Assembly (NCBI GenBank): GCA_964199315.1
Contig: OZ116700.1
Location: 15,996,001-16,060,000 of the forward strand
Origin: Orbicella franksi
Lineage: Eukaryota
Reading direction: 5' to 3'
Length of the DNA stretch: 64,000 nucleotides
Positions 455-58,236 of the stretch are shown piece by piece. A program made the translations under genes and the position numbers. The notes under the pieces were generated by a model that was not told the origin of the DNA, searched no databases, and saw nothing but the letters and a program-made list of their open reading frames with translations. Position 1 is the stretch's first letter. Each line of letters begins with the position of its first letter.

Positions 455-2011
455 TTACAAAGCATAGCACACACACCACATTTGATTTACTATTCCAAAC
501 TGGCTTAATGGCATAACCCCCTCAAATATTAAAACGTTCTTTACTTTGTTGATGGACCTTTCAACATGGATACGCAAACTTGCAATTTCCTGTGTTTTGG
601 TAACACCTTCAGCAGACATTTGATCAGACATTCCAAGGAATGGGGGGATATTAAGGGTCACTCCAAGGGGAAGCACATCCTCAATTGTAAAACCCTTGTC
701 GGCTATTACACAGTCTCCATTTTCAAAGGGTAGTTTCAAAAAACCACTGCGTTCCACTATTTCTTTATCAGATATACTGCCAGTGCATAGCTGTCCAATG
801 AATGTTATTGACCCTTTAGGGGAAATTCCAATCAGTCCTTTCAGAGTGGTGTGACTCTTGTACAAGCTAAATAGCTCACTGTTCAACAAAAGGCTGCTTA
901 GCATGTGGCACCGCACCTCTGTGCAGTCATTTATCACTCTTGTACTGGGGTACTTCTCTTTAAAGGCCTCAGGCATAGAATCATCCACAGATTTTCTGGA
1001 GGGCCAGATATTGATCTGGCCAAGTTTCAAATACATAAAATTAATCCAAGAAATAAATATGCTACTTACAGTAGACTGTGATACTTTAAACAAGTGTGCA
1101 AGATGAACCTCAGCAAAACCTTGCCTCAGTCTGCACATTGCCAGGAAAAATTCTTCTAGAGGTAACAAAGTCCTTGGCCTTCCTTGCTTAACTAAGTTAC
1201 CAACTGCAGCCTTTTGGGAATCTTCTTGGCCTGACAACCAGTATTTAATATTTTTTCCATTGACACCTGGATTTAAATACTCATATAGAGCCATCATTGT
1301 CTGCACATTTGGAAACCCAGTATAAAATGTTAACAATGAGTCATCTGTTTTGATGTTCTCAAATGAAAACACGTGTTTTTCGAGTTTATCACATTTCTGC
1401 TCAAAAAGATCAATGTTTTGCTTTAAAGATGACACCTCCAATTCTAATTTTTCTTTTATTTCAATAGTTTCAGCTAACAGTTTCTCCAGTCGTGTAATTT
1501 CTTGATTTTCTTTGGACTGTAAATCATTTACAGCTGATGGAAATTCTTCCATTTCCGGAGCGAGGTGACTTTCTGTGCTTGTCGTAAGGACATGTAAGTT
1601 GGATGATTCCTCCACAATTTCCCTCGAACAGGAAGCCTCAACAACTTCAGCGATAGTTTTGCTTACCTTCCGTGACACAGAAGTGGCCGTACTGGAGATA
1701 CGAGGCGTTGGAGGCGGTCGCTTGTGAGGTGAGCTTCGTTTCCAAGTGAAAACAGAAGGAACAGCCCCTTGTCTTAATGAAATCACGCCATCTAAGCTCT
1801 TCTTCAAATCATCCAGCTTAAAGTGCCATGAGCATACCTTTGTTGTACTTGATATCTGAAAATCTTTCCCCTCATCTCTCCGAATAGCATGTATCCACTG
1901 CTTTCGTGTTTTTTCTTGCGTTGGAAATTTAAAGTAAGATACCTTCTCTCTGGTCTCTTCTTCACAATATCCTTTCCTAGTGCAAAGTGGAACACAGCAA
2001 TGCGTTGGCAT
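455..2011 (-). CDS. THAP-domain Harbinger/ISL2EU-type DDE transposase (THAP + coiled coil + HTH + DDE_Tnp_4-like), about 518 aa, uninterrupted ORF
   Basis: MPTHCCVPLC...KFP...WIHAIRR...VCSWHF...AVPSVF (THAP); EEFFLAMCRLRQG...FKVSQSTVS (HTH); NDCTEV, ADKGF and RIHVERSI (D-D-E). The likely ATG is at 2011; the 18 extra N-terminal residues in the ORF track come from the Crypton hairpin. Confidence 0.85.
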   Translation of the reverse strand: MPTHCCVPLCTRKGYCEEETREKVSYFKFPTQEKTRKQWIHAIRRDEGKDFQISSTTKVCSWHFKLDDLKKSLDGVISLRQGAVPSVFTWKRSSPHKRPPPTPRISSTATSVSRKVSKTIAEVVEASCSREIVEESSNLHVLTTSTESHLAPEMEEFPSAVNDLQSKENQEITRLEKLLAETIEIKEKLELEVSSLKQNIDLFEQKCDKLEKHVFSFENIKTDDSLLTFYTGFPNVQTMMALYEYLNPGVNGKNIKYWLSGQEDSQKAAVGNLVKQGRPRTLLPLEEFFLAMCRLRQGFAEVHLAHLFKVSQSTVSSIFISWINFMYLKLGQINIWPSRKSVDDSMPEAFKEKYPSTRVINDCTEVRCHMLSSLLLNSELFSLYKSHTTLKGLIGISPKGSITFIGQLCTGSISDKEIVERSGFLKLPFENGDCVIADKGFTIEDVLPLGVTLNIPPFLGMSDQMSAEGVTKTQEIASLRIHVERSINKVKNVLIFEGVMPLSQFGIVNQMWCVCYAL

Positions 2012-2024
2012 TTTAGGTAATAGA

Positions 2025-2161
2025 TCAAAAACGAGTGCGAGTTTTTCATCAGGGGTTCCAAACACCGAGAAACAGATGAAAGCACAACGCCGAAGGCGGA
2101 GTGCTTTTATTGTTTCGAGGTGTTTGGAACCCCTGATGAAAAACGAAGCACGAGTTTTTGA
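2025..2161. repeat. Long hairpin (about 60-bp arms, 26-bp perfect core) at the Crypton 5' end
   Basis: GTTTTTCATCAGGGGTTCCAAACACC (2041-2066) is the exact reverse complement of 2119-2144. The loop contains a CGCC-GAA-GGCG mini-stem. Confidence 0.95.
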
Positions 2162-2338
2162 GCTGGCTTCTCAAAGTAGCATGAGAATTTTTTTCGAAGA
2201 ATAGGTAATTAGTAGGCATGCTCAATAGGCTATTGTCTGTTTTTTATTCATATGGTAAATGAAATGAATCTTTTATATGCGGCCATGTGGGCAAGTTTTA
2301 AAGGTTGAATTTTTAATAAATTAACATTATGCTGCGTG

Positions 2339-3680
2339 ATGGTGATCGAGTGGAGATCAGAACGTTTTCGAGTTCCAAAAACCTCTTCTCAAGAAAATGT
2401 TTTGGTGAATGATGCTGTTCCAGTTTCAACTAAGTATAAAAACAAGTGGGCTGCGAACATTTTTGCCGAATGGCAGAGGTTGAGAGAGGTTAAAGTTCCA
2501 GTATTAGATTGTGGCGGTCTCTTCAAGGACTACGATTTACACAATGTTACCGCTGTGAGTGTAGATATTGCTGGAATGGACGCTCTGTCACTGAACTATT
2601 GGTTGTCAAAATTTGTGATGGAGGTAGCTAAAAAGTCCGGTGAAAGATACCCTCCGAAGTCTGTTTATGGTATCATTTGTGCCCTCAAGCGTTATTTGGA
2701 GGAGAAAAATGGATCAGAAGCTTTGAATCCTCTGGACGCTAGTGACAAAAGGTACTTGACAACTTTTAGACCAAATTGGTTAGTAATTTAAAATGCACTG
2801 TTTCAGGACTTTAATTTTGTGTGTTATTTTTTGAAGGTTTGTCCTTTTCCGACGTTGCTTAGATGCCGAGATGAAGAATGGCGTTCGAGAAGGGCTTCAC
2901 ATCAAGTGTAAGAAAGAGGAAAAGGAGTTTGTGAGCGAGCAAGAAGAAGCAGTATTCTGGCAAAAGAAATTGCTGAGAACTACATCAGCTAAGTCGTTAT
3001 TGAACACGATCTATTTCTACAACGGAAAAGTTTTTGGGTTGCGGGGGGGAGATCACAGAAATATTGTTGTAAACAGCTTTGAAATTGGTCCAAATTTTAT
3101 TAAGTTTGAAGAAAATGCCTCTAAAACTTATCATGGAGGTCTTTGTGATCTAAAGTATGTGCCGCGAGTGGTCAAGCATGTTTGTCATTCTATTGAGGAA
3201 AAGCACAAGCCGTGCCTTGTTGAGATATTCAGATTGTATGTAGGGTTAGTTGAGACTCATGCAAAGGAAGTTACTGCATTTTACTTTAAGCCATCAAAAA
3301 CTAGGTTCGCATTCGATAAAGCGCCCGTAGGCATCAACAGCTTGAACAAGATTTTGCCTGACATGTGCGACGCGGCAGGCTTTAAACGCAAAACCGTTCA
3401 CAGTTTGCGCATTACTTGTGTTTCCTCCCTGTTCAATTCTGGGGTTGAAGAAAAATTGACTCGCGAAAGGTCGGGGCATCGTTCTAATGCATTGTTGCAG
3501 TACGAAAAGCCTACAGAAGAAAATGTGTCTAAAGTTTCAAAGATCCTAGGTCCAAGTGTTGTTAGTACAACTACATGTTTTACCACAGAGAAACAGGATC
3601 AATCTTTAACGGATGTTGTTTTCCAGAAAGGAAAATTCAAAAACTGTACAATTAATGTAACGATGTCTAAGAAGGAATAA
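2339..3680 (+). CDS. Crypton (DUF3504-like) tyrosine recombinase, 2 exons (2339-2751, 2837-3680), about 418 aa, no internal stops
   Basis: A phase-2 GT-AG intron (2752-2836) joins the two track ORFs in frame (DKR|FVLFRRCLDAEMK). Motifs: STKYKNKWAANIFAEW, YFYNGKVFGLRGGDHR (R), HSLR (HxxR), RSGHRS (H), LLQYEK (Y). Confidence 0.85.
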
Positions 3681-4139: not shown

Positions 4140-6060
4140 GCTGCATGAAAAGACTTGTCTTGCTGAAAGTTGCCATAACTTGGCTTCTGTCTAGTTTCAT
4201 TTGACCATACTGGAATGTTGTGGTTCTCCTTCCTTAACTCATGTTCAACAGGTAAGAATCAGCTGTTACCAGTCTACACTGTCTTCAAATACTAGCAATA
4301 CTCTCCTATTAGCAAACACCACGCACACCCTCTCAAAGAACCAGTACCTGTTAAGAAAAAAACTTTTCACAGTCCTTGATAATCTAGGATGTAGATAACC
4401 ACTTCAACTTTCAGAGTAAAAGGTGCCCTTTGGTAGGCATCATAAAGCTTACAGCCTGTTAGGTATATAAGTTCATCAACCAGAACCTCCAGGTAAGGGT
4501 CCAAATGTTTAGGCTCTGCTCCTTGTACCTGGCTGGGGATGATGCCTACAAGAATAAGATTTTCAAAGTGGTTTCTTATTCTCCTTGATAGATTAAGTTG
4601 ACCAAGAACTACAGGCCACATGGAATAATTGGTTTTATTTCTACTCCACAGGTTAAGGCCATCAAGACAAAGGGATAATGCAACACCTCTTGGTTCACCC
4701 TGAAATCTGCCATTTGACCCAAATGCTTCTTTCCACTTTGGAGAATCATGGATATCTTGCATCATTTGCTTGGTTTCCAGACAGGCTTTTTCCCTGTCGT
4801 GGTTTTGGAGTAGATAAAATATGTCCTTTGTTCCAAAGCTTCTAGCCAGTCTCGGGCCAAGGGGCAAGTACCAGAAGATTCTTCATGGAACATTACTGTG
4901 TTTAAAGCGTGGTTCTTTGCATTTAGGGCATTCTGCATGTACTTTGTACTCTCCTCTGAAGAGAACAGTCATTTACATAAGCATAAAATACCAGTTCAGG
5001 AACTAGGTAGGGCTTAATGATCATATAGGCACTTTGGTAGGGTGTAGGAAGACAATTCCCCTTGGGAAGAATTGAATGCCATATCTGCAAGTTCCTTGAA
5101 AAAGCCTCTTTGCTCACAGAGGGATGGGAAGGAAACCAGTAAAATAGGTGAACTAGAGTCTCTAGCAAGGTACATGTTGAACTGCTATGAAGAGGAGAAC
5201 TATCAGAGGGCATTTCTGACAAATTATATTGCTCTGGTATTGAAAATGTTTCACTTATGTCCAAAGGTTACATGGTTTCATCATCTGAATCCTGAAAGTA
5301 ACTGTGCATGAATGAATTAAAGAAATGGCAGCTAATGGCGAGAGCACTCTCCACCTCCCGTGCTTTGTACTCTCATAAAAGCACAATGTTTAGATTGTCA
5401 GTTAAGCATTATCAAAGGTTGGTTTCCCAAACTTTGTATAGAATCATTCAATTTATGATGAACGTTACTGTGATTCACAACTTTTTTGCACACAAGTATT
5501 GACTTGACAATAAATACAATAAACAAAACTCAAACAATACCTCTTCACTGTCAGAGCCAGACACCCCACTTTCATTGTCATAAGACAAGCCGCTCTCTCG
5601 ATCACCTTTGACCTCGAGAATTGGACTTTCTATGAATTCTTCAATTGGGATGACCTTTAGAGTTTTTAACACACCACATTAATGACATCAACGATTACCA
5701 GTGTATATTTACCACATGTACAGGAGAGAGCTTAGATGAATGAAGTTCTCACTCATAGGTTCATACAGTTGCATAATCATGTTCTTTGCACTCCAACACC
5801 TTAAGGTGAATTTCTAGCATGTAGAAAACACTTGAATGTAAAAATACCTCGTTTGATGCAATCTTGCCATGATCACCAGCGCACTCAGTCGGATTATTGA
5901 TGCTTTCAAGGACTGTGTCTTCCGAACAACCAGACAGGTGCAGAGAAACCTTGAATCAGAAAACCCCGTAATACGTTTTGTAAACAACTCATGATCACGA
6001 GGTGGTCCTGCACTATTCTGCCAAGTTATTTTCCTTTTATGTGGACAATGCAACAATTTC
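4140..6060 (-). pseudogene. CACTA/EnSpm (Transposase_21/tnp2-like) transposase remnant
   Basis: YVNDC..F...CPKCKEPRF, LCLDGLNLW...YSMWPVVLGQLNL...ENLILVGIIP...EPKHLDPYLEVLVDEL, LDYQGL...CAWC...FLPVEHELR. Contains frameshifts and stops; the C-terminus is cut at about 4140. Confidence 0.8.
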
Positions 6061-9300: not shown

Positions 9301-12300
9301 GGTGGGATTACAGTCATATTTTTGTCAATTTTGGTGAAATTTGTAAGAATTTTAATTTTAATCTCAAAACACTCTTAAAGCTATAGTAGTACTTCCCCTG
9401 GTGTTTTTTTCTTTCTTCTTTACTTTTTCTGGTGAAGAGAAGCAGTTCTTTACAACACACTCTTAAATGTTGATCCATTGCCATGGCTACCAATTTGAAA
9501 ACAAGAGCTTTTAGGCAGCATTTAGTCGATAAAAATTCGTTGAATCCTCCCCTTTCCAAGTCATCCAAAAGTCCAATCCAAGCCACACTTCCGAAAGGAG
9601 GCCTGGCCCCTCAGTAAACAACACGTGCACCTGTTTCATTTTGCTTTGGCTGTGTGGTTGCTCGCATTGTTTTATCATCTTCATTATGCCTAAAGGAAAC
9701 CGTGTTGGATCCAAAGTGGCTGTTGCCAAAAGGAGTAAAAGTAAAAATGTTCAGGTTTTCTTGGAACACCCAAATGGAGAAAAGACGAAGAGAGAAAACG
9801 ACCGAAATCCGCAAGTGAAATCACTTTTGTTGCTGATTGTGATGTCGGAAGCGACAGCGATTGTTCAGAGAAACCCCTTCCTAAGTCTTCATCAAAACGA
9901 AAAATAAAGGACATTGAATCGTCCTCCTCCGAAGAATATGAATTCAAAGAAGCGAAAAGAGCCAAAGGATATCATTTCGTGGACATGGGCGGTCTAAAAG
10001 ATTTAATTCAAAGAGTTCATGCATTCAGCGGAAATTGTTCAGGTTAGCAAATAAAACCTTGAATGTTTTAGCTACTCACAGTTTCAGTCAGTTGAATTTA
10101 TTATTGTTTGAGTTGGAAATTTTCAGACTAGATTTTATTGCTAAAATATTTTTATATATCCATTTTTAGGTACAGTGCATATTCTTGAAGATCCTTTGAA
10201 TGGTTATGGCCTATGCAGTACACGCCATGTTGAGTGTGATACCTGTGAGCTGTCACAGTTCTTTAGCACTGGCAAACACAATGTCAGTGATAAAGTACCT
10301 CGAACCATGCAGGGAAAGGACATAAACAGGAGGTCAGTCTTTGCAGCAAATGAGGTAGGGCTTGGCAGAGAGGGCATTGCTGCTATATGCGAAGCACTAA
10401 ACATGCCTCCTCTTGTGGCCCCAACTGCTTGGGCCACTCATGAAGATGAACTGTACAAGCAAAATCTTGTTGTCATTAATGAAGAACTAGAGAAAAATCG
10501 AAGTGAACTAAAAGAACTTTTTCAAAGGGGCAGCAGTCAATCTCATCAGTGTAATCTCCCAGTATCAGTTAGCTTTGATGGAACCTGGGCCAAAAGAGGG
10601 TTTACATCTAACCATGGGGTTGGATTTGTGATCTCGACTGATACTGGCAAAGTTCTGGATTATTCAGTTGTCTCCAAGGCATGCAGTGCATGCAGAATAA
10701 ACGAGAAAAGGCTTTCTCAGGAGGAATTTGAGCTATGGAGAAGAGATCATGACTGTGTTGGGGGATATGAGGGTTCAAGTCCAAGCATGGAAACTGAATG
10801 TGCACGTAAAATATGAAACAGAAGAAGGGACCATGGCTTGGAATGCCACTTTATGGTTTCTGATGGAGATTCAAAGGCATACAATTCAGTATGGGATGTT
10901 TATGGGGTGTGTAGTGACTGCGACAAGTATGAACGAATGGAGAAATCATCATCTGATTACATAAAGTGGAAAAACTTCTTGGCATATAAACAATGGGAAA
11001 AAGGACCACCTGTCAGAAGAAGCTGGGTGTCACAGAGTTGTAAAATTAGACTGTGTGGGACATGTGCAAAAAAGGATGGGAAAAGCATTAAGAAATGTCC
11101 AACAACAGAAAGGAAAGCTACCAGATGAGAAGCCAGTGGGTGGCAGACCTGGTCGTTTGACAAAACCAGCAATTGAAAAATTGCAAAAGTACTATGGAAG
11201 AGCAATTAGGAATAATGCTAAGAATGGTAAACTGACAACTGAAGAGACAGAAAGAGCAATAAAAGCAATGCAAAATGAGATCAAAGCTGGCTTATACCAC
11301 AGCTGCAAGTTGCCAGATAAAGAGAGGCATAAGTATTGTCCCTCAAACTCATGGTGCTCTTACAAGAGAACTGGGAAACCAATTGAAAACAAGGGCCACC
11401 ATCTTGATCCTGTCTTTGTAGAACACTTGGAGCATGTGTACCTCCGCTTATCAGATGAAAAGCTTTTGAAGAGGTGTCTGCCAGGACACACTCAAAACCC
11501 AAATGAATGTATCAATTCCTTGGTTTGGATACGATGCCCTAAGCATAAGTGGTTCGGAAGAAAGCGTGTAGAAATGGCAGCAATCTCTGCAACATTGCAT
11601 TTCTGCTCTGGTGCAAAAGCCAAGCACAGGGTCATGGAACTTTCTGGAATAAAAGCTGGAGTAAACTATGTATGCCAGTCAGAAAAGAGACATTCAAAGA
11701 GTAAAGAAAGTTGAAAAAAGATCATCAGAGCTATTCAAAAGAAAAAGACGAGCTACAAAGAGGGTCGCTGTGAGGATTGAGGAAGCTCGTATTCAAGGGG
11801 AAGGGACCACATATGAGGCTGGCACCTTCTAACGCAGCAAATGGACATGTGAATGACTCACATATCACAGTTTTGTTTGTATTTACTTCTTAAAACAGCA
11901 TCTTATCAGAAACTACAGTGTTTCTAACGATGTTGATGAAAAACTTTTGTACTTTGATGTTTGATACTTTTAACTTGAATTTTTCAGAACTAGTGTTTTT
12001 CATGACAAGGGAGCTGCCCCGGCTAATATTTGCAAGAGGTTTTGAGCTATTGACCTCATTTTTTCAGCAGATGTTCCTTGTATTTATATCTGTAGGTTGA
12101 GTGATTTACCTTTTGGCCTACCTAAATTAATTATGAATGGTAAAAATTACACCTGAACTTTAAGTTTCCTGGTTACCATGGCAACATGATTGACATTTGA
12201 CGAATTCTAAATCACTCATCCTACATTTTGACTATAGATGAACATACTGGAATTGGTTGTTTTTCAATTAGTTTTAATGCATTCTCCTATGAAATTGGGG

Positions 12301-13737: not shown

Positions 13738-16190
13738 GAAAGGTCAAGTGACCGAACAGAGAACGGCAAATGTACAAATGTCACGAACCGTAGGAGTCGT
13801 GTAGGCTAGTCAACCCCATTTTACACTGATATGATTATTATGGACGTGCCCCGTTCTACATCGTGCAAGACATAGCAGCACTCAACTAACGTCAAGGAGC
13901 TTAAAGCAAAAAATACGCACTCAATGTATAGCATCAACCCCATTTTAAAGAGGGGGTTTGCAAAAGAACATGTGCATTAAATCAAAATAGCTCCAAATTG
14001 CAGATCAACCATCGAGTGCCTAGAAATCTAGAAAAAATGCCGTCAAAGAAACACACAATAACGAAGTCAAGCTTCAAAAAAGTAAGGATCGAAAAGTACA
14101 TTACGCCATTGGCTAGCTGTCATAGCCAATAGAAACCAGACATGTTCTATCCGTCACTAGGGTACACACCACGAGAAGTTTGTGCCAAGCCGCAGAATGT
14201 CTTGCATTCTCACAGAGGTACGAGTTGCGCTAGCAACTTCAGATGTACAGAATATTTTAGAAATACCGGCAACTGATGAGATCCACATGGAGGATCGAAA
14301 CCATGATCTTGCCTGAACTAAGCCGAACAATGGCATATAAAACACGCAAAACAGTCAACAGGACTTGCGCGTAAACAGCTACATTTGAATCATGTGGTGC
14401 CAGAACAACCAAAGGAGGAATAAACCTATACATCGAGCAAGAGAAACATAAGCTCGAGCAGATAGCTGCAAGCAACATACGAATGTCACTAGACAAACGT
14501 ATAGCTTTCTCAAAGTAAAGCTACGGCGTCTCCGAAGGAAATCGTACGAGAACAAATATGATATCCGTGATGAGGATCTACCTACTGTGCTTGCAAACAG
14601 TTCTAATCACAGCCGGGCCCGGCGTCACAATATAGAATGCAAGTAAGCAACATGTCACGGTAAATTTCATATTTCGTCCCTCAAAAGCAAATTCATGGAG
14701 ACTCATAAAAGCATGTCTTGCAATAGAAATGAGCCTAAAAAATGCAAAAACACATGGCAAATTACAGAGGTGTCAAACGAGTCGATACGCAGATAACATG
14801 CAGACCTATGGCCTAAAAAAAATTTGCCATAGCATGATCTAAATGCTCAAATTCACTTAAAATTCCTCCTTGTTACACAACATGAAGTGCCCTTCATGAA
14901 CACGAGTGAAGCGACAAGAAAGGTCGAGTGACCGAACAGAGAACGGCAAATGTACAAATGTCACGAACCGTAGGAGTCGTGTAGGCTAGTCAACCCCATT
15001 TTACACTGATATGATTATTATGGACGTGCCCCGTTCTACATCGTGCAAGACATAGCAGCACTCAACTAACGTCAAGGAGCTTAAAGCAAAAAATACGCAC
15101 TCAATGTATAGCATCAACCCCATTTTAAAGAGGGGGTTTGCAAAAGAACATGTGCGTTAAATCAAAATAGCTCCAAATTGCAGATCAACCATCGAGTGCC
15201 TAGAAATCTAGAAAAAATGCCATCAAAGAAACACACAATAACGAGGTCAAGCTTCAAAAAAGTAAGGATCGAAAAGTACATTACGCCATTGGCTAGCTGT
15301 CATAGCCAATAGAAACCAGACATGTTCTATCCGTCACTAGGGTACACACCACGAGAAGTTTGTGCCAAGCCGCAATGTCTTGCATTCTCAGAGGTACGAG
15401 TTGCGCTAGCAACTTCAGATGTACAGAATATTTCACAAATACCGGCAACTGATGAGATCCACATGGAGGATCGAAACCATGATCTTGCCTGAACTAAGCC
15501 GAACAATGGCATATAAAACACGCAAAACTGTCAACAGGACTTGCGCGTAAACAGCTACATTTGAATCGTGTGGTGCCAGAACAACCAAAGGAGGAATAAA
15601 CCTATACATCGAGCAAGAGAAACATAAGCTCGAGCAGATAGCTGCAAGCAACATACGAATGTCACTAGACAAACGTATAGCTTTCTCAAAGTAAAGCTAC
15701 GGCGTCTCCGAAGGAAATCGTACGAGAACAAATATGATATCCGTGATAAGGATCTACCTACTGTGCTTGCAAACAGTTCTAATCACAGCCGGGCCCGGCG
15801 TCACAATATAGAATGCAAGTAAGCAACATGTCACGGTAAATTTCATATTTCGTCCCTCAAAAGCAAATTCATGGAGACTCATAAAAGCATATCTTGCAAT
15901 AGAAATGAGCCTAAAAAATGCAAAAACACATGGCAAATTACAGAGGTGTCAAACTCAACGAGTCGACACGCAGATAACATGCAGACCTATGACCTAAAAA
16001 AAATTTGCCATAGCATGATCTAAATGCTCAAATTCACTTAAAATTCCTCCTTGTTACACAACATGAAGTGCCCTTCATGGACACGAGTGAAGCGACAAGA
16101 AAGGTCGAGTGACCGAACAGAGAACGGCAAATGTACAAATGTCACGAACCGTAGGAGTCGTGTAGGCTAGTCAACCCCATTTTACACTGA
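13738..16190. repeat. Tandem repeat with a unit of about 1180 bp (2 full units plus about 90 bp)
   Basis: AGGTC(A/G)AGTGACCGAACAGAG at 13741, 14921 and 16102. The units are near-identical and non-coding. Confidence 0.95.
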
Positions 16191-20617: not shown

Positions 20618-20639
20618 TTCCATCTCCTATTCAGCCAGT

Positions 20640-21083
20640 TGGGAAACATGAAAACCCAAGCTAATAACCACACCAGAGAGAAGCCCTTCGTCTCCTCTTA
20701 CTGCCCGAAGCAATTCACCCAGAACACCTACGTAAAACAGTATGCGAGAGTCCACACAGAGGAGAGGCCCTTCACCTGTCAATACTCCATCAAGTCATTT
20801 ACTCAGGCCTTCTACCTGAAACATCAGCTAGTCCACACCGGAAAGGAACCCTTCACTTGCCAACGCTGTGACAAACAATTCACCCAAGGGACTTGCCTAA
20901 AATCTCATCTACGCACCCACACAGAAAAAAAAAGCATTCACCCAAAGTGACTACCTAAGAAATCATGTATGCACCCACACCGAAGAGAAACCCTTTGCCT
21001 GCCCCCACTGAAACAAAGAATTCACCCACACAGACTCCCTGTGAACCCATGTCAAAAGTAAACACCGACCAGACAAGTCCTAG
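20640..21083 (+). pseudogene. Intronless C2H2 zinc-finger array (about 5 degenerate fingers)
   Basis: Linkers HTREKPF, HTEERPFTC, HTGKEPFTCQRCDKQFTQGTCLKSHLRTHT, HTEEKPFACPH. Several Cys/His are lost and there are stops and frameshifts. Confidence 0.85.
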
Positions 21084-21226: not shown

Positions 21227-22570
21227 TTATTGTATCTGTTAGTTTAGTGTTGATATTGAACTTTTTCAGATCATTTAAAACCCCATGCGACATGTAAAGA
21301 TTTGTGAAAATTGTTATGATTTGCTTATTTTCCCTTTTTGACTCCCATACGGCAAAAAGCCTTACAGATGGGATGTCTCACACTTTTTTAATCATTATGT
21401 CAAAAACTGTGCAGAACACATTTCATGTAAAACGAAGAATGCCATTAAAACTTGTTTATGAGTCATGTGCACCATCTTGAATTCCCCTTGATCACCAAAG
21501 CGATTTCTCACATGACGTCAACACTGGGTTCTATGATGTCAGCCCCTAGAAAAGAGGGAGGGGGTAACCCCTCCTTTTACAACAATGGCAGTCCAGAGAG
21601 CAGGGGAATCCCCCGTCCTCCTTTTCAACTTCCATACCTTATTTGGTCCCGGATAAGTACTGCATGATGCGTACACCCCCTCTTGGCTGACATTATGAAG
21701 GGTATTGTCTTTTCCATTACTTTATTTGGTCACAAAAGGCTGTGATAGGTCAGATCATCACTCATGCCATGGAAAAGTACTGGACATTGATTGGTTCTTC
21801 AATTCTATACCCTGTATGTACCCGTGTATTAGTCAATCCTGTGTATAAGTCAACCCCCTATTTTTGAGGCCAAAAACTAGATTTTCTTAATTTCCAGGTA
21901 AGAATTTCTTGTATTTCTTAGAATTACAACAGCTACAACAGATATGTAAACAAATCACAGCAAGTTTCAACGTGCAGTTTTAATAAGCTTATTATGGCAT
22001 GTATACGAGCGTTTAACCCAGTTTATAAACACATGTGCATGTGGGCTTTTCGATGATAATTTTTGTCAAATGCTCACAAAATCAAACAACGATTTCAAAC
22101 GAACAGTTTTAAGTGCGATTAAAACTGGCTTTGTAAGACAGGCAAAACACCAAAGAAGCTCAAGACTTTCAGAACGCCTCCATAAACAAAGTGCAACGCC
22201 TGCATTGGGAACTTGGTAGCCAAGCCTTAAAATAGGTTGAGTACTTGTACAGAAGTCCCGACACTTGTATCCTGCTAGGTTACTAAGCAGAGAAGTTCGA
22301 AGCGCAGAAGATGTTTTCTCTGAGTGGCTTTACTAGAGCTTTATTTATAGGAAAAATATTGGTTCTTGATTGGTGCATACTACACTTATCCAAATATCTT
22401 GATGTGACTGAGTGTTAGAAGGGGTATAGGGTAGAAATCTTTATGCAGATTTATCCATAATAAATTAAAACTCGATAGAAACATGCTCCATGTTTAAGCT
22501 TATCTCATAAGGCCAAAATTCTATCAATCAACCTCGAACATCATGTGTTCTAATGTGACTCTTTCTTCCC

Positions 22571-22663
22571 AACTCCGCCCGAATATCATATCACTCTGCT
22601 TAGCCTGAATATATATGTATATCACTCCGCTTAGCCTGAATATTACTCCGGTTAGCCTGTATA
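22571..22663. repeat. Three to four copies of a ~21-bp motif upstream of the spliced YR gene
   Basis: TCACTCTGCTTAGCCTGAATA (22591), TCACTCCGCTTAGCCTGAATA (22622), TTACTCCGGTTAGCCTGTATA (22644), and a weak copy at 22571. Confidence 0.8.
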
Positions 22664-25216
22664 ATAAATGAATTGTTTGCCTCAGCTCAGCTGTTCAGGA
22701 AATGGCTACATCTTGAATTACTGCTGGCTGACTTCAAAACCACGGGCCCACTTCCAAACATCCTCCTTTTCCACAACTTCGGACCACATTTTCAAACCTT
22801 GCCACTCTGGACAAACTCCAGATTGACTCCAGCACGAACTCTGTTTCCTCTACAAGGAATCGAACAGTTTGTTAATCTCATCCATTCAAACCCAACCTCT
22901 CTATAAGCCTTCAAAGTTGGGCTCTTACACTACTTCCCAGCCCTCCTCGGTCATAGGCCACAGACTCCTGTTCAATCAGTCCTTGTTTTTGTTTACTCAC
23001 ATGTCACGGACTGCCACGTTGAACCACACATTCCTCTCTCCACCTTTGACCAGCTGCAGTCGGCTTTGCCTCCTCCTCCTACCATGTAATCTATAGTTTC
23101 CTACCGGCTCACTTCATCCGACAAATCAAGCTCAGATGAATCCGAAAATGCAGAATTACTTCAGCTTCCAGCCCCTTCCAAGAAACTCTGCACAAGCCAA
23201 GTCCAAATATCCTTCCACGCAGCAGAAAGACTCCATCCCACACGGCCTCGATTCACACTTCCAGCAACAACAGCGGCAAGAAAATGAAGAAGGACAAGAA
23301 CAAGAAGAATGAGAAGAAAGATCGGCCAGAGAAGAAGAAGAAGGCATAGAAATGAAAGGCGACAGGAACCACGCAGGATATATTCCCATCAGCAAAGTCC
23401 AAAAACAATCATATACCCTGAACTAGAAAGAATTGCTGGGAGAAGTGCAGAACTTTCTCCGGGAAGTCAAACATTTTTCTACTCATCAAGTCAACCTGGA
23501 GAGACAAGCGAAACCACTGGCAATGTCCACATCACAGAAAGCCCAGGAAAGGACGTTGTGTGAGTTCAGAGACAATTCTTTTAACGATTTGATTATTGTT
23601 GTCTTTATTTGTTCAGACTTGTCTCTTTCATGCCCTCAGGTTTTCTAGTTTTTTGAAGGACTCACCTCCGAGTGGAATTGCAACCAAACGTTTTTCTGCA
23701 TGCGGCATCGTTGGAATCGTATATGGACTATCTTAAGGTGACATAATGGATTTTTCTGATGTTTGTGCGGGTACTGGGTCGAATTGAGCAGCCATGTTGG
23801 ATGTTGTGGGCATGTCAAATCTTTTTGGCTTGCTTATCCATGTTCCTAGTTTTAAAACCCATTTGTAAACTACCATAATTTTGACTGTCATAATCTATTC
23901 CAAAATTAATATTTGTAGAATCGGTCCATACCATAAAATCCAACAACCATTACTGCCTGAAATTTGCCCGTCAGATATAATTGTATTTCAGGCTATTTCA
24001 AGTTATGTTATGTTTGAATTCATATCCTTGACTGCAGAATTTGTTTTCCTGAAACTGGTTCAGAATGTCAATTATAAAAAGTGATATTTACGACTTGTGT
24101 TAATTATTGTTATTGACTGTTTAGTGTTATGTCGTGAATCTTGATAAATAGTGTAATGTTTTTTTTCATTTTTGCAGGACCACAGGAAATTGTCACCAAC
24201 AGCCATATCCAATCACTGCTGTTCGCTATTGAATGTGGTCAAATTCCTTCACTGAGAGAGCGCTCTGGAGTACCTAGACATTCCTGTGATCAAGCAGCTG
24301 AGAACTCAGGCCACACTTTTCCAGCGTCAAGGCAATTTGGAACGTCCCCACACCAAGGAAGAGCTGACAGTTCTGAACTGTTGGCTTGACTGGTAAGCAC
24401 AAGTAATATTATTTTACTGCTTTGCAATGGATAACAATCCATCTTCTCAAGATAAGTGAAGTTTCAATGTGTCATCTCTCGCATGAAAACGTACACCCAA
24501 AACAAATGGCTAGTGAATGTAGTTATTTGTATCTATTGAAACCTAAATGAAACTAAAACAATGCTGTGACTAAAATTAAGTTCTAAATTCTGAGCCACAA
24601 ACATCTAAACCATTGTTGTAGTCATATTTGGAGAGGGTTTCCGTTCGCATAGAACAGCTCAAGCAGTTGGCTTGAACGGATACCCGTTAGCATATGTTTT
24701 GGTGTGAGAGGTTAACATTAGAGTTGTTGAAACCTGCTACGCAGTCAATGTGACATTTTTAAGCGTCCCATCTTTGTCACCCCTTGGCAAGTCAACATGG
24801 CAAACAGTTGATGTATGAAAGTTTTCATTTACATTTCCAGTGACATCATTTCAAACTCCAGGACATTTGAAACCATCTTTCCACTACATGCACATTTTGA
24901 TTTCCCAGAGATTTTCAGTTAATTTTTAAACATCGCTTATCCTTTTTTTAAGTTTAAAAAGCCTTTGAAGGTTCATCACTAAGCGAATCACAGAAAAAGC
25001 GAATGTTGTCTAGAAAACATATTGTTTTGATTTGGTAAAAATGAATTTCGATCTGTTCCTTGAATAGCGTTGCCTTGCAAGTGACCAAAATCTAACCAGG
25101 TGGAAATCCTGTACAGTGCGAAAGTTCTTTTAAATTTTATAGTTACTTCAGTACTTCATCTTATTCCAAACACATATGCATATACAGACACGCAACAATC
25201 TGTCAACCCGACTTAA

Positions 25217-28200
25217 GGCGGGGGTAAACATGAAATTTGGTCAGAAAATGCGATTTTTTTTTTCGAGCCATCTAAACCTTTATCATTGAGGATCGTTTTG
25301 CAGCTGTTTCAAGCTCTAGTTTGTAACCGTTTTGCCTCTGTGAGCTTTTTATTGACGTGCAGTAAAAATAAGCAAAGCCGTTGCCATGGAAACGCATCTG
25401 TGTGTTTAGTGGTTTTGGGCTCTTTTTATGCTTTTGTGTTGCCCCTGCGTTCCAAAACACACAAGGCTTGGTTGAGAGGAACTCTGTGCCTGTCTACATG
25501 AAATAGAACTCAGATTTTGCATTATGGGATAGGATTTGGCCCGCGCAAAATTTTGTCGATCGAATTCAATCTTAGGAAACTCGTTGTTGCAGCTAATATC
25601 GTTTAAAATGGCTGGATACAAGGAAAAAAATGTATATAGAAAGAAAAGGAAAAGAAAGCCATTCTCGGGAGTACCGAAACAGGCCAAAAGGCAGAAGAAA
25701 ACCACCGAAATCGTCGATCCAACTCCGAGCACTTCTCGTGATAATTGCTCTGACACTGACATTGAATTCGAAATGGAAGAGCCCATCAGTGCTTCCAGAA
25801 AGAAAATGAAGCTGCAATCGTCGCTCAACGATTCCTCTGAGCCCATTGAGAGTGAAAATGATATGTTTCAGAGACAAGGATACCGGCTAATAGACCTGGA
25901 GAGACTTTCCTCGACACTCTCTGAAGCACATGTCTGCGAGGAAGGTAAGACATTTTTATTTTTGACTATTTTTCTTACACTCGTGTAGTTTCATGTAAGC
26001 TACTACATATGTTATTTGGAAGTGTTTACATTTAGTTCGAAGTACAGTAACTTATGTTGGCATAGGAGGTAAAGCATGGGTTTTTCTACATAATTAGTTT
26101 GAACAATCTCCAGTTCAATATTGCAAGAATTAGGGCTGTGTTTATACACTTGTTTTAATTGCAGTCTACCTTAGATAAGAAAGCCCTAACATTCCTTTCT
26201 GTATTTATAATTTAGGTACTTTAACTCTTCAAGAGAATGAATCTGGAAGAAGAGGCCTAAAGAGTGAGCTGTCTGCTCAGTGTAGCTCTTGCCTAGAGGA
26301 GTCACCTTTAGAGACATCCTTTTTCATAACCAATAGAGGAAAATCTGTGGATGTCAACAGGCGCATAGTTTACCACTCCATAGAAACCGGTGGTGGATAT
26401 GAAGGACTAGCGTCATTCTGTAGCATAATGAACATGCCGTGCCTTTCCAAGCCAGCATATTACCAGCATGTGGAGACAATTCTGGATGCTCTGGAGTTTG
26501 AAGCCCTGGAGGACATGAGAGCAGCTGGACAAAGGCTTCGCGAGCACATTTTGAAGGAGAGTAGAGAAGAAAATACTGATACAGTTGTGGATGCAGCAGT
26601 AAGTTTCGATGGTACATGGGCAAAAAGGGGCTTTACCTCTCTCACTGGAGTTGTCTTTGTGCTGTCAGTAGACACTGGAGAAGTTCTTGACTACCATGTC
26701 CTATCCAAATCCTGCCAGAAGTGTTCACTTAAGAAGGGACACTGTAATTCAGATGATGAATTTGAAGAGTGGCAGATGGAGCACATTGCCTCAGGTGATT
26801 GTGACATAAACTTTCATGGCAGTTCCCCAGCCATGGAGACAGAGGGAGCTTAAGTCTTATGGAACCGATCACTAGAGAGACACAAAATCTGATATAAATG
26901 GATGGTCAGCGACGGTGACAGTAAAGCCTTCAGTGCAGTGGAAGATACATATGGTGACCACTGCAAAGTTGTCAAATTAGACTGTGTTGGTCACATCCAG
27001 AAGCGCATGGGGAAGCATCTTCTCAACTTAAAGGCATGGACAAAAGGAAAGCTGGCTGATGGTAAGCCTATTGGAGGTCGTGGTCGTCTATTGGAGGAAA
27101 AAATCAAGCAAATTCAAAGATATTATGGTCTAGCTATTAGACAGAACACTGACCACAGCCAATCCTTCTGACAGAGATGTTAATATGGCAGTATATTCTA
27201 TGAAAAAGAATGTAATTGCCATATTAAACCACTCTGTTAAAGCTCAAGACTTAGCAAAGCAGCATAGATTTTGTCCTCCAGGCGAGAGCTCTTGGTGCAA
27301 ATGGCAACAAGATCAAGCCTCTGGAACTGCTACTTATAAAAAGGATGAGTGCCTGCCAGAAATTTTTCTTGAGTTGCTGCGCCCAACATTTATGACACTA
27401 AGCGAGACAAAGCTTCTTGAAAGATGTGTTCGTGGTACAACACAGAACCGAAATGAATGCATCAATTCACTGGTTTGGGTTCGGTGTCCCAAACACAAGC
27501 ACCATGGGGTGAAGGTCATCCGCTGTGCAGCCGCGTCTGCTGTTCTGCATTTTCATGGTGGAGCTGCCAGCAGGGAGAAAGTTATGGAGAGGCTTTCAAT
27601 ACCAGCTGGAAAATTTACCAGCAGAGCTTTGCTTGCAAGAGACAGGAAGCGACTGCAGAAGTCAGACCTTCAGGCCAGCAGAAAACAGAAGAAACGTCGT
27701 CAATCAGAACAGCTGAGGCGAACTCGAAGAGAGGAGGCTCTGCGAGAGGCAGAGGGTGTCACCTATGAAGCTGGTGCCTTCTAGGCTTTCCCTGTTGAAC
27801 TTACAATTGTATTTGGTCATATCATGAACTTTAAGCCCCTTGATTCTGTGTAACTGACAAAAGAAACTCTTCTGGAACTTTATGTGTGAATTTCCGAAAA
27901 CATGTATTTTATACCTTTGAGAAAGGATATCTCAGGATGTATTAGTTCAATTTGTCTGAAATTTTCAGGGCTCTATATTCTCACTGAGTTGAGTAGGATG
28001 AGCAGACAGTTTCTAAATAAGTCAAATTTTAGGCAAGTTATTGAGAAATCTCATCCTTAAAAAATTTTGCTGAACTTTGAACTGGCGCTGTGCCCATAAT
28101 TTTAGTGGATTTGAAAATTCCTCTGCTTATCCAAGAGAGTGAACCCTGTACTTTGTGTTGACACTAGAACCACTTCATTCCATAAAATATATGAGGAGTT

Positions 28201-28415
28201 ACCTTTTCTCAACTAACACTAGGTTTTTCACAGCATGTGGCTAACATATTGATCTGGTATCAAATTACAAATTTGTCTAGGGCAAAATCATTGGTATTTT
28301 CAGAAAGTGTGATTCCTAAGCTTTCTTCTGATATATAGTTTTATATGGTTCTGAAATGTAGTTGTGGTATTACACTTGTTTGAAAAAAGTGCCTATTTTC
28401 ATGTTTACCCCCGCC
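25217..28415 (+). mobile_element. Kolobok-type DNA transposon, 3199 bp, both ends present, inside intron 3 of the YR gene
   Basis: TTAA at 25213-25216 and 28416-28419. Perfect 19-bp TIR GGCGGGGGTAAACATGAAA. Confidence 0.9.
25608..27784 (+). pseudogene. Kolobok (Mutator-like domain) transposase, spliced (exon 1 25608-25944, exon 2 from 26216), disrupted
   Basis: SFDGTWAKRG, VSDGDSK, CVGHIQKRMG, NRNECINSLVWVRCPK, YEAGAF*. Several in-frame stops. Confidence 0.85.
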
Positions 28416-31299
28416 TTAACCCACGGATAAAAATCTGAATGCTTTTTCTCAAATCTAACTTATCGGTTGTCAACTGTATTGTGATTTAAGCCGAATAATC
28501 GAATGAACCAGGAGTAAACATTGCGGATTGTCATCAGAAGGTTGCACACAAATCTAGTAAATTGAAAATTAACAAACTATAAGATTGTTGAAAAATTTTT
28601 GATTCTTTGCCATTTAAGATTAAGAGAGAGTCTCCGCGTCTCTGTTTTAATCCCCATTCCATTGTTATTGAAGGAAAAGGGTTAAGAACAGGGTTGACTG
28701 GTAGGCACAAGTATCATCATTTTACTGCTTTGCGATGGGTAAAAATCCATCTTCTTATGATCTGTAAATTTTACACGCGTGTAATTACACGTACCTAACA
28801 CACACTGTCCACGAATACTACACGCAGACTATACGCATTTTACGCGCTGTAGGCACTGCAATCCCTTTGACCGGTTTGTACATCTGTAAGTGACAAATTT
28901 GAATTTTCCAACCCCTAACAATAGTTGTTTCTACGCTTTGTGTATCCATGACTAAAAACTATGGATATGTGCAGGCTAATATCTTGATACAACATTTTGC
29001 AAGGAGCAGATTGTCAATGCTTGCAGTGTGCAGAGAGATTATTTTGAGATGGCCATCAACAAAAGGGACAAAGCACGCGAATGCTGTGACCTGGTGATTT
29101 TGGCCGTGCACGTTTTTATCCCTCCAGGCAGGAGTGTCGAGGTTCGTACCCTGAAGATTCAAAGAAACTGACAGGAGTTTCATCCTAATCAGGCCAAAGG
29201 CGGAAATGTCCTCTTGATGAAGGATTCAGAAGAGGTCAAGGTTTACTTCCACAACTCTAAAACTGCAAAGTTCCTTGGCCATCAGGAGCTGCCTTCAAAG
29301 TGTTACACCATGTAAATATGTCACACCTTCGCACCAGCACCTATTGCACAGCATGCACATGCACATAATTAGCATACAGCACAACCACTGCACATTTGTA
29401 TAAATTAAGCAGTTATTTAAATTAAAACATTCAGTTTACCATATCCGAAACCGAGTAAATAACAGAAGATAAGACAAAGTAGCAGAATGACTTAATTAAC
29501 ACTTTTGAATATTTTGATTGGTCTCCTATTTTCCTATTGATCATGGAGGTAAACTAGCTGTAGTTGGATTCTTTTGTGGGATTATCCAATAGTTGTTGCA
29601 TAATCCTAATGGTCACTTGCCATATTGAGGAATTTGTTCTTGGAGCCAGGCCTTGAATTTGCCAAGAGCTGTGATTATGATACTATATTATGATACGTCC
29701 CGAGATGTTGTACTGAAAAGAAACAAATCCACGTCACACCATTTCTTCTGACCACAGGCAGATCATGAACTGTGCAAAATACCTCTCGACTTTGTGAAAA
29801 CTCACCGTCCACAATTGGTTGGCAAGGAAAGCAGTGACATCTTGCTTCTGGTAAGGACATTATCTTCAAGCTGTAATGCAGTAACTTACTGTCATTCCAT
29901 TTGGGGTGATTAGCAGGACAAACTGACCCCAGATTCTAGCATCAAGTCAAACCCTGAAACTTACACACAATGATCACTGCATTTCAAACCTATGTTGGTC
30001 AACTTTTGAGAGTATTTGGTAACAATGTCGATTTTTGAGAATTTTTTAAACTTTTTTTTTGGTCGAGCATCAAAATGAGGGCCATGCATACTTTTTGGTT
30101 TTCTGGTATTATTTTACGTTCTTTTAATTCTTTGTTTGCCAAATTTGGCCTCCAAATAGTTCAAAACGTGGCTCAGGATCTAAAGTGATTTTAGAGTATT
30201 AACCTTTTGCTTTGGCCTCCTTATGATATTGCAAAGTTCACCATTTAAGGGCCTTTCAAACCCTTTGGCATTTTTTCTTCTCTGTTGTTTGAAACGGTCA
30301 CAATCAATAATGTTTCCATTGGACAAAATAATTTTTATACGTAACAAAGGTATATAGGTATGGTATACCTCACGTCTTGACCGACTACAAATTGAGACAA
30401 TTCTTTAAATTATTACACCGTATTTTATTGACCAAAAAGGAGCTTAAGAGGTTCAAAATTTCTGAAAGCAAAGATTGTTTTTTTCTGCAAATCCCCTGAT
30501 TCCTTGGAACATGCATTTCTGGAATGTCCTACCAGCCTAAACTTCTTTCAAAAAGTTCTTGCATGGTTCAATAATGAGCATAGAGTTAGACTTTACACCC
30601 TCTAAAATACAGCTACTATTTGAGGACTATGATCCACCCCCAAATACAAGCCCAAACCTTACCAGGAAGTTTGGAATTTTAGTTGTGCAAACTCAAAAAT
30701 ATTATTCTTGCAAAATGTTGGAAAAAACTTTTAATTTTCTTGAATTGAAGTCAGCCCTATCTTTGCCATGGAAAGCTGAAAAATGCATTAATTTAATTCA
30801 ATTTACGATATATAATCAGTCTCAGTGGCAAAATCAGTCATTAATGTTCTCCTACTATTGTTATAATATGAATGTAAAGAAGATTTAATCATTAGGTATA
30901 AAATCGTAAGTGGTGTAAGTTAGTACAGTGTATTAGTATCATAACTTAAAAAGGTAAATGTATTGTTTTGTTGAGTAAGTTCTGTATCTGTATTGTATTG
31001 TTAAATAGTGTAAGTAGCGTTAGTAGTTGTATTATTGTTGTAAGTTGTGTCGATCACTATTAAAGTATTTAAAAAATATATATAACAAAGAAACAGTTCA
31101 TGTACTAATATAATAACTCTGCGAAAAGTCCTAAAAGAAATTTACAACATTGTAGTGTCTCATTTGTTTACACACACAGTCTTTGTGGTTCAGTGTGAGA
31201 TTTGAACGAAAGTTGTCTTCACGCACAGATCACGCAAGAAGAAAACAACACTTTTGAACACCAATGACTTTGGCCTTCAGAAGAAAAAACCAGTGGAAC

Positions 31300-56554: not shown

Positions 56555-57993
56555 TCCATAACATACCCGACGCGCCGACGAAGAGGTTTTTTTTTTTTCC
56601 AAAAAAATAACCCCAAAATAGCACAAAATATGATACTTTTTGCTGAATAGAACATCAGCAACTGATTACAGATACATTTTTCTAGCTACAGGTCCAAAAA
56701 CACTAGGAGCCAGGTGGGTCAGTTACGAAAATTGGGCAGAGCGAGACCAGATAGAATTTTGATGGGGGGTCGGGTGAAGAGATAATTCCGAGAATAAGAG
56801 TGAGTATTACAGTGTAATTCTAAACCGCATAACTGTTCTTCGCAGAGTGTTTGGAAAGAATCAAACTTAAGGTCAATCCTCACATTTGCATTGCGCATCG
56901 TCACTGCGCATAATTTATGGCGTTATTAGCCCGCGCTCGTGCACGCGCATATTGAAAACTTGACGGATTTGCCTTGATATTGAGCTCTGTTAGTTGAAAA
57001 ATGGCTCTAGTTCCCCAACGAGCATGGGCACACCAATTTTTTTTCCAGTCGTTGTAATCAACTAATCATAAGCTTTGCGTGAGAAAAGACTGATCTAATT
57101 TCTATTGCTGAAAATTGAATAAATAAGAAAAATAGCAAATACACTGTGGTCTTTTCTATTTTTCAGTCGGTAACCACGTCAAGAAATTTGGTTCAAATTT
57201 TTAATCAAAGATTTAGCTTTCTGTCTGAATCAAACTTACACGTTTATTTGTGGTCCGACACAATGTATTGACTGTGGTTTAATGCGTGTTCTTATGAGTC
57301 CGGGCTTACAAAGATGTTACAATTACTGGGACTGCGTTCTTATAATAAGCATTAAATAATGCAAAAATGGGGCATTTTCAATGCCTCACTGCTCCTTAAT
57401 GAGCATGGGCACCCCCCTTTTTTATTTCAAAATTGAAGTTATCATATGACAAATATTCAGTGGACAAAGTTTGAACAAAAATCTATTGTCACTTTTATTT
57501 CAGAGGAATTACCTTAAACTTCACTGTAAACTCAAAACCCAGGGCAAATGAATTTAAAACAACACCACTTATTTCTGTATCACTGTTTGGATCACCTCCA
57601 TAACATACCCGACGCGCCGACGAAGAGGTTTTTTTTTTTTCCAAAAAAATAACCCAAAAATAGCACAAAATATGATACTTTTTGCTGAATAGAACATCAG
57701 CAACTGATTACAGATACATTTTTCTAGCTACAGGTCCAAAAACACGAGGAGCCAGGTGGGTCGGTTAGGAAAATTGGGCAGAGCGAGACCAGATAGAATT
57801 TTGATGGGGGGTCGGGTGAAGAGATAATTCCGAGAATAAGAGTGAGTATTACAGTATAATTCTAAACCGCATAACTGTTCTTCGCAGAGTGTTTGGAAAG
57901 AATCAAACTTAAACTTCACTGTAAACTCAAAACCCAGGGCAAATGAATTTGAAACAACACCACTTATTTCTGTATCACTGTTTGGATCACCTC
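56555..57993. repeat. Tandem duplication of a ~396-bp unit (56555-57596 including an insertion; 57597-57993)
   Basis: Both copies start TCCATAACATACCCGACGCGCCG and end TGGATCACCTC. They differ by about 5 substitutions and a poly-T length change. Confidence 0.95.
56871..57513. mobile_element. 643-bp non-autonomous TTAA-specific (Kolobok-type) element
   Basis: TTAA|GGTCAATCCTC ... GAGGAATTACC|TTAA. The empty site AATCAAAC-TTAA-ACTTCACTG is present in the adjacent duplicate. Confidence 0.9.
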
Positions 57994-58236
57994 AATGCCG
58001 AGTGACAACATTTTAGTGCATTTAAGGTTTGTTACGAGTCAGGTGTGTTTTTAGCCTCGATGCAAATGTTCTTCTTGCGTCAGGCGCATGCGTAAGATAT
58101 TTTGAACATGACACTGTTTCTAAATTTAAGAGTTATATCATTGAACTACCCTCTAACATAAAACGGAGTCGAAGACACACCTGAGAAATACAGCTCCGTT
58201 GAAAGTAGCGTGTTTAACTTTAAAGCGGAATCCGAC

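Follow-up and report, generated by a model that had tools for sequence, protein, structure and literature searches.

A dead exon 1-5 fragment in Orbicella franksi and its telomeric-repeat relatives: a tyrosine recombinase gene probably split inside its own intron on integration

Tyrosine recombinases (YRs) recombine two short like sites, and when these lie as direct repeats a circle is released. In the archaeal suicidal integrases of SSV1, pTN3 and pT26-2, the site lies inside the YR gene, integration splits the gene, and the intact gene provides a control of directionality; the 2021 review describing them calls such integrases exclusive to archaea in the part available (PMC8371274). Cryptons insert via a terminal motif that matches the target (bioRxiv 2022.05.23.493040, available part), and CryptonV is a cnidarian group of YR transposons with microsatellite-specific families (Kapitonov and Jurka 2012, as cited in the available part of PMC8869645 and listed in that of PMC5753468). 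A decayed YR element with features of both systems lies in a stretch of 64,000 nucleotides (nt) from the coral Orbicella franksi (assembly GCA_964199315.1, contig OZ116700.1, positions 15,996,001 to 16,060,000; G000:C3:15996001-16060000), here called the window, which was analysed together with the genome of 497 Mb in 805 contigs. The copy in the window, family W, is the right-hand part of an element at 22552..29955 (+). It can be regarded with good confidence as a dead exon 1-5 fragment whose relatives in telomeric repeats are bounded inside intron 5, so that integration likely splits the gene and a full YR likely arises only from an excised circle or a head-to-tail pair.

The span 22552..29955 is common to the window and a sister copy on contig C10 (G000:C10:6199951-6176729, minus strand), which is about 84% identical over 3,461 aligned nt. 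All five exons (E1 to E5) of the preliminary description are present and homologous to intact relatives in the same genome, with 43-55% identity, but the copy is a pseudogene with stops in E1 to E4. The conserved coding part of exon 1 (23391..23559, +) comprises the start of the core-binding domain with an in-frame stop at 23424; it matches families A and B and the protein P0010 at 45-50% in tblastn, and its donor was mapped at 23559. A start had been proposed at 22673, where the frame is broken; the ATG is not kept in the C10 sister, protein similarity begins near 23391, and the true start of this exon is not identifiable. Exon 2 (23640..23737, +; stop at 23654) continues the core-binding domain, exon 3 (24178..24392, +; stop at 24253) encodes core-binding domain and linker, and exon 4 (29003..29300, +; stop at 29169) carries the catalytic Arg-I (PPGRSVEVR) and Lys (SKT). 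Exon 5 (29758..29850, +) is the last exon on this side of the putative recombination site. The motifs PPGRSVEVRTL, HNSKTAKFLGHQ and HRPQL..ILLL, read from the letters alone, were all recovered, and profile searches gave independent E-values of 1.6e-28 for E4, 2e-22 for E3 and 1e-3 to 3e-2 for E1, E2 and E5. A search of the genome with exon 4 (29 matches) revealed no closer relative that is intact.

The junction phases E1/E2 (1), E2/E3 (0) and E3/E4 (2) are the same as in family A, in line with the consistent phasing claimed at first. This claim does not extend to E4 and E5, which do not join in phase because a 164-nt repeat resembling a solo long terminal repeat (29301..29464, unstranded, TG..CA) sits exactly at the end of exon 4 with a degenerate native donor behind it. 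The repeat is missing from the C10 copy and occurs elsewhere in the genome as same-strand pairs 3.6-4.5 kb apart. Splice-site mapping bore out the suspected defect of the exon-4 acceptor, which is non-canonical. In intron 3, the end of exon 3 and its donor region are partly duplicated (28691..28772, +; 83% to 24383-24464), and there is a DNA transposon of 3.2 kb with terminal inverted repeats (25213..28419, +). It has GGCGGGGGTAAAC termini, a TTAA duplication flanking it on either side and a PF20700 transposase that is broken (E 1.2e-41), and is presumably Kolobok- or Sola3-like; the C10 sister has an empty TTAA site at this place. Stops in frame at four places, defects of both the acceptor and the donor of exon 4 and two inserted elements make the window copy a dead pseudogene.

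The exons with the HxxR and Tyr motifs had been reported as not found, and they are indeed absent from the window and 50 kb upstream, because intron 5 is cut off after about 100 nt by the end of the element. Searches for exons 6 and 7 by tblastn and profile in these regions and in 100 kb around the C10 sister found none, while a control locus was positive; genome searches with E6 and E7 gave no match on C3 (first-look searches, thus lower bounds). Similarity between the window and C10 stops at window position 29955, about 100 nt behind exon 5, and C10 continues with CCCTAACCATAACCCTAAC. The segment 29851..29955 (+), the first ~100 nt of intron 5, represents the right end of the element, with only two matches of this 3' end in the genome; it contains a TGGGGTGA motif and terminates in AAACCCT, an eroded CCCTAA-type target. 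About 50 nt ahead of the repeat, W, A and B all have the TGGGGTGA motif at their right ends. A GGGGTGA motif is also repeated in subterminal regions (L211:3290-3706, L050:5752-7770 and the right ends of A, B and W) and is a candidate for arm-type binding sites.

Intact relatives with E6 and E7, which the preliminary description had proposed to look for, do exist in the genome (45% identity), within (CCCTAA)n tracts at the ends of chromosomes, and they support its view of a spliced YR belonging to a nuclear mobile element. Family A on C580 has seven exons, and its intron 5 holds (CCCTAA)3; E6 carries INILRSSF, and E7 carries RHS, TYDR and a C-terminal domain of 110 residues. Family A arrays alternate a short unit, consisting of left end, a deletion of E6-E7, E1-E5 and right end, with a long unit consisting of left end, E6-E7, a 683-bp satellite, two cargo ORFs (open reading frames) and right end. 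The left and right ends of the two units are homologous. The family B unit at C580:38690-65539 has CCCTAA repeats at both borders and the order left end, E6-E7 (39.9-41.8 kb), cargo, E1-E5 (60.5-63.4 kb), right end. E6-E7 also precede E1-E5 in family B on C8 and on C177, where the unit spans an N gap, and no E6 follows E1-E5 on either contig. The right end of family B abuts its own left end at two of five places (C580:65540, C8:422) and leads into a CCCTAA tract and an unrelated satellite at the other three (C8:18075, C12:10979, C177:149079), while the left end comes after B, A or C right ends at all four full copies found. Family C provides a filled and an empty site: on C177 it fills the tract that separates A from B, whereas the corresponding position on C580 has no family C. 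Units range from 17 to 66 kb, and those of families A, B, C, E, F and G border on (CCCTAA)n.

The permuted order could in principle result from cutting a tandem array of a normally contiguous gene whose telomere-like microsatellite in intron 5 is a hotspot for breakage, telomerase healing or the insertion of other elements. Most intact family A copies show E1-E7 in order, family C is contiguous, the junction also occurs at interior sites, in decayed B-like copies at C12 and C5, and a healed break might be the origin of C767, where 3.3 kb of telomere lead into 0.4 kb with the left end and then into an exon 6 from another family. This explanation is nevertheless unlikely, as it is at odds with the exon order of family B on C8 and C177, with the resolution of family A arrays into two units with homologous ends and with family C, whose intron 5 has no such site motif. 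A decayed family A copy on C10 also speaks against it: it consists of E1-E5 and the right end, a dispersed repeat bearing CCCTAA comes next, just as at the right end of the W sister, and neither copy continues into telomere or E6.

The two cargo ORFs are common to family A and the long family B unit (L053, C580:30663-34260; L099-L100, C177:128105-131626), with 58-62% identity and no Pfam match. One of them is presumably GNAT-like, judged by eye from a motif, and had no database match. The units also contain reverse transcriptase (RT) pieces that are not the same from family to family and have the look of insertions. At L090 (C177:30102-35455), a sequence that we take to be similar to ribosomal DNA is joined directly to the family A exon-6 region. 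Common subtelomeric satellites (10-bp GCCCTAGAAA, 210-214 bp and 19 bp) lie proximal to the element arrays from C8:18286, C4:15335 and C177:149100 onward.

A boundary in intron 5 recurs across lineages. At 9 of 11 split-clade loci, which represent about five lineages and not 11 independent events, a CCCTAACC-like site is located 77-127 nt behind exon 5, with a background of 0.002 per 150 nt. Of the other two, family B has its site at +2136, after an RT fragment that was inserted, and the window, where homology ends at this point, retains no more than the first bases of the site. A metagenome scan provided 11 loci, the runs with the YR family being mostly labelled coral metagenome or given under coded names. 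In family F, E5 is followed by 107 nt and then by a long telomere tract (L182) or a short core with other sequence (L181, L189), and in L190 by 77 nt and (CCCTAA)3. L183 and L187 end before the site, L188 has exon 4 only, and L180, L184, L185 and L186 belong to A or B. Six of seven named coral gene models stop after exon 5, as do models P0099 and P0095 (Nematostella), while the Nematostella models P0084, P0219 and P0220 run on; these are predictions judged from the models, not from the underlying DNA. A FastTree phylogeny with midpoint root, built from 210 columns and the 108 sequences retained out of 224, joins W to P0010 from Desmophyllum (0.97), and both are nested in a clade with A, B, F and Nematostella (0.94) whose sister is the contiguous family C. 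The tree contains no references from Polinton-like viruses (PLVs), Cryptons or DIRS elements, and the family is therefore not placeable among them.

RNA contigs from runs X12 and X1, which come from two studies and have no DNA control, contain GT..AG joints of family A for E3-4, E4-5, E5-6 and E6-7. Between E5 and E6, 2,152 nt are spliced out, among them the junction of right end, (CCCTAA)3 and left end. Family B is spliced at E6-7 in the same two runs, not in the unlabelled run X16, and the transcript L180 of this family has E2-E5 spliced, keeps intron 1 and reads into intron 5. Of the RNA junctions suggested as a check on the spliced gene, those from E3 onward were thus seen in family A, but not E1-E2. 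Families A and B both use an additional intron-2 donor, which is joined to exon 3 (L050:3294 and L056:1640), and often retain intron 1; messages of these types would lack the start of the core-binding domain. The boundary in intron 5 across lineages and the splicing of E5 to E6 indicate that the recombination site is likely inside the gene's own intron. Judged by sequence, this putative site would lead to a split of the gene on integration, and its junction is spliced out of the family A RNA.

In the mechanism proposed here, the YR would recombine short CCCTAA cores at both ends, and a circle would be excised. The circle would rejoin intron 5, and splicing would remove the junction whatever its repeat number; with the site placed in an intron, this number could therefore vary without a frameshift. 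A telomere tract or a CCCTAA-like motif in the interior could then serve the full YR as target for integrating the circle, by which the gene would be split again, and tandem insertion into the same tract would also restore it. A lone integrated copy would yield only the E1-E5 product, which lacks Arg-II, His and Tyr. Family A may have fixed a working gene as a tandem pair by reciprocal deletions, the first unit having lost E6-E7 and the second E1-E5. Insertion at a CCCTAA-like site in the interior, followed by loss of the left half and decay, is the probable history of the window copy. As a tentative proposal, the family could be a eukaryotic suicidal recombinase: a telomere-targeting coral DNA transposon with an attachment site in its own YR intron, in which the enzyme would be activated through circle or tandem formation, and coral chromosome ends would consist in part of arrays of such elements. 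Such a system is undescribed for any Crypton.

Several observations weigh against the split-gene interpretation. Family C and some Nematostella models are contiguous, and near-identical small contigs may be redundant assembly. The window copy retains no CCCTAA repeat, and its left half was not found. In the raw polyA runs X23 and X24, family A has no real coverage (13 and 15 partial reads, one spurious joint), the family B E5-E6 joint is not among the 15 of 26 joints listed, and both A and B show intron-1 retention or the extra donor in intron 2. The E1-E2 joint was seen in the RNA of neither family, so that the RNA does not establish a full-length mRNA. No circle, excision or catalysis was observed, and tandem junctions look identical to circle junctions; circles and catalysis remain postulates derived from the genome. 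In addition, the first His of HxxR is Asn in these YR proteins, and the confident structural model is that of an intronless relative, whereas the AlphaFold model of the spliced-type P0212 (7 sequences) reached a predicted local distance difference test score (pLDDT) of only 49 and was not used.

Intact members of the family have the motifs PPSRGLEIR, YKT, NxLRS, RHS and TYDR, with R, K, R, H and Y conserved; the window copy has R and K only. Pfam searches with family members gave sub-threshold integrase matches (PF02899, E 0.006; PF00589, E 0.002) and nothing meaningful for the window exon alone, while a sequence search of the PDB gave XerD only (E 0.95), whose LRH/LGH/Y aligns with NxxR/HS/Y. 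Intronless relatives D (726-760 amino acids, aa) and E (831 aa, beside a CCCTAA tract) align across the YR and the C-terminal domain of spliced members. These relatives of 726-831 aa (L125, C4:12515-14794; L129, C331; the C9 end; L164, C10:7.68 Mb; L169, C777:28217-30712) sit at chromosome ends, in tandems, or beside CCCTAA or CCCCTAA tracts, and have an additional N-terminal domain without a Pfam match and 53 database relatives. The integrase fold suggested at first is found in the model of relative D (pLDDT 75), which matches Cre, XerA and XerD (XerD: Z 13.6, root-mean-square deviation (rmsd) 2.9 over 150). By this model, the family is assigned to the tyrosine recombinase superfamily, with a predicted core-binding domain and a catalytic domain of the Cre/Xer type.

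The YR had been called virus-like, which holds only at the level of the fold, in the model of the intronless relative; in contrast, no IMG/VR contig encodes a relative, and the named sequence relatives are from corals, Nematostella, a sponge, a chytrid fungus and protists. In BFVD, giant-virus proteins were the best matches of the D model (E 2e-9 to 5e-5); an Aureococcus virus protein matched at E 1.9e-5 and, weakly, a Qinghai Lake virophage protein at E 2e-3. OLV11-like YRs, to which the coral family has a fold-level likeness, occur in PLVs, Organic Lake virophages and Aureococcus virus (PMC4642659), a YR occurs in 52 of 4,862 coral polintoviruses (PMC11131425), and nimaviruses target telomere repeats with a YR (PMC10871703), each according to the part of the source available. 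A fragment of an endogenous PLV or giant virus whose YR gained introns is nevertheless very improbable. The ORF lists of the A2, B and C units contain no capsid, ATPase or PolB-sized ORF, holding only two shared unknown ORFs, satellites and retroelement pieces, and no PLV or virophage modules were recognisable among unspliced unit ORFs of at least 120 aa. In IMG/VR, 9 and 14 pattern matches included no confirmed relative, and PHROGs gave nothing under E 0.01. Unlike OLV11-like YRs, the coral family has introns and an extra BAH-like C-terminal domain. Telomere-inserting endogenous nimaviruses share YR-associated insertion into telomere repeats, concatemers and, in some cases, multi-exon YR genes, but are crustacean viruses of 280-400 kb with a zinc-finger-bearing YR (PMC10871703, available part), and no nimavirus protein was among the best 50 BFVD rows for the D model. 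The PLV and nimavirus comparisons also draw on the available parts of PMC11131425 and bioRxiv 10.64898/2026.10.13.758929.

In the D model, residues 387-468 resemble several BAH domains (Z up to 7.2, with rmsd 2.2 over 77), which is no more than a lead towards chromatin binding. This fold, together with conserved introns, RNA support and presence across corals and Nematostella, would also suit a YR that the host has domesticated as a gene of its own or as a telomere-maintenance factor, of which the window copy would then be a pseudogene. Such an origin is the least probable of those considered. Several families, many near-identical copies, target-bounded units, a filled and an empty site, and interior copies in decay are all characteristic of a mobile element. 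A profile search gave 3,620 representatives at E 0.001. Named relatives among 30 looked up were from corals, Nematostella, a sponge, a chytrid fungus and protist transcripts, next to one 4.6-kb contig of a bacterial-labelled metagenome-assembled genome and two IMG 'integrase' entries. The nearest ESM Atlas cluster is cnidarian; mollusc and chordate clusters score under 0.9 and are leads only.

It is rather likely that the family is a CryptonV, as judged by description only. Like CryptonV, it is a YR-encoding DNA transposon without its own RT, inserts specifically in a microsatellite, (CCCTAA)n at the unit boundaries, and has a cnidarian host range, its named animal relatives including Montipora, Acropora, Porites, Desmophyllum and Nematostella. 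The intron-5 split is unmentioned in the available parts of the CryptonV accounts (PMC8869645, PMC5753468). With CryptonA, F, I and S elements, the family shares the character of a YR-only DNA transposon and a short terminal motif recombining with a matching target (PMC3212892 and bioRxiv 2022.05.23.493040, available parts), but it has no DUF3504 similarity, other motifs and units of 17-66 kb. Membership in CryptonA/DUF3504 was rejected, as the preliminary description had anticipated: no family member scanned matched PF12012, and hhalign gave a probability of 0.1% against the window's own DUF3504 YR. This separate, two-exon CryptonA-type YR (2309-3680), which matches PF12012 at 2835-3677 (E 9e-13), served as control. 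DIRS/Ngaro membership was likewise rejected, the unit ORF lists and ends having no gag, RT/RNase H and YR layout with split or inverted terminal repeats.

As in suicidal integrases, a recombination site, putative in the coral, lies inside the YR gene, and integration separates two parts. In the archaeal elements the site is in the coding sequence, whereas in the coral family it would be in a spliceosomal intron with telomeric repeat as target, and Arg-I/Lys and Arg-II/His/Tyr stand on opposite sides of the split. There is no close kinship, SSV1 having rank 20 with Z 8.2. A split YR gene is not mentioned in the available parts of PMC3212892, PMC5753468, PMC13465315, PMC3706591 and PMC6431247. 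In the literature searched, which did not extend to Repbase Reports and subscription journals, such a split has been reported only for archaeal integrases.

Decayed transposons are abundant in the window. They include a second decayed element with a PF20700 (Mutator-like) transposase at about 9533-11714, a THAP-Harbinger transposase at 455-2170 (-) and a CACTA Tnp2 fragment at 4367-5267 (-). A C2H2 zinc-finger fragment is located at 20618-20950 (+). Recent local tandem duplications with 98-99% identity occupy 13738-16190 and 56555-57996, with periods of ~1.18 kb and ~1.04 kb, and a 21-bp minisatellite widespread in the genome (74 matches) lies at 22588-22664, at the 5' edge of the shared W block.

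Starting from the pseudogene in the window, the analysis reached a family that is young and transcribed and whose unusual architecture is well supported. The intron-5 split accounts for the end of this family's coral gene models at exon 5 and for their missing YR annotation, and young DNA-transposon arrays are identified at coral chromosome ends. Intact, expressed copies exist, and their YR likely recognises the TTAGGG repeat, which is common to corals and vertebrates. If the proposed mechanism is true, integration-split recombinases would extend from archaea to animals, with splicing tolerating a repeat target of variable length.

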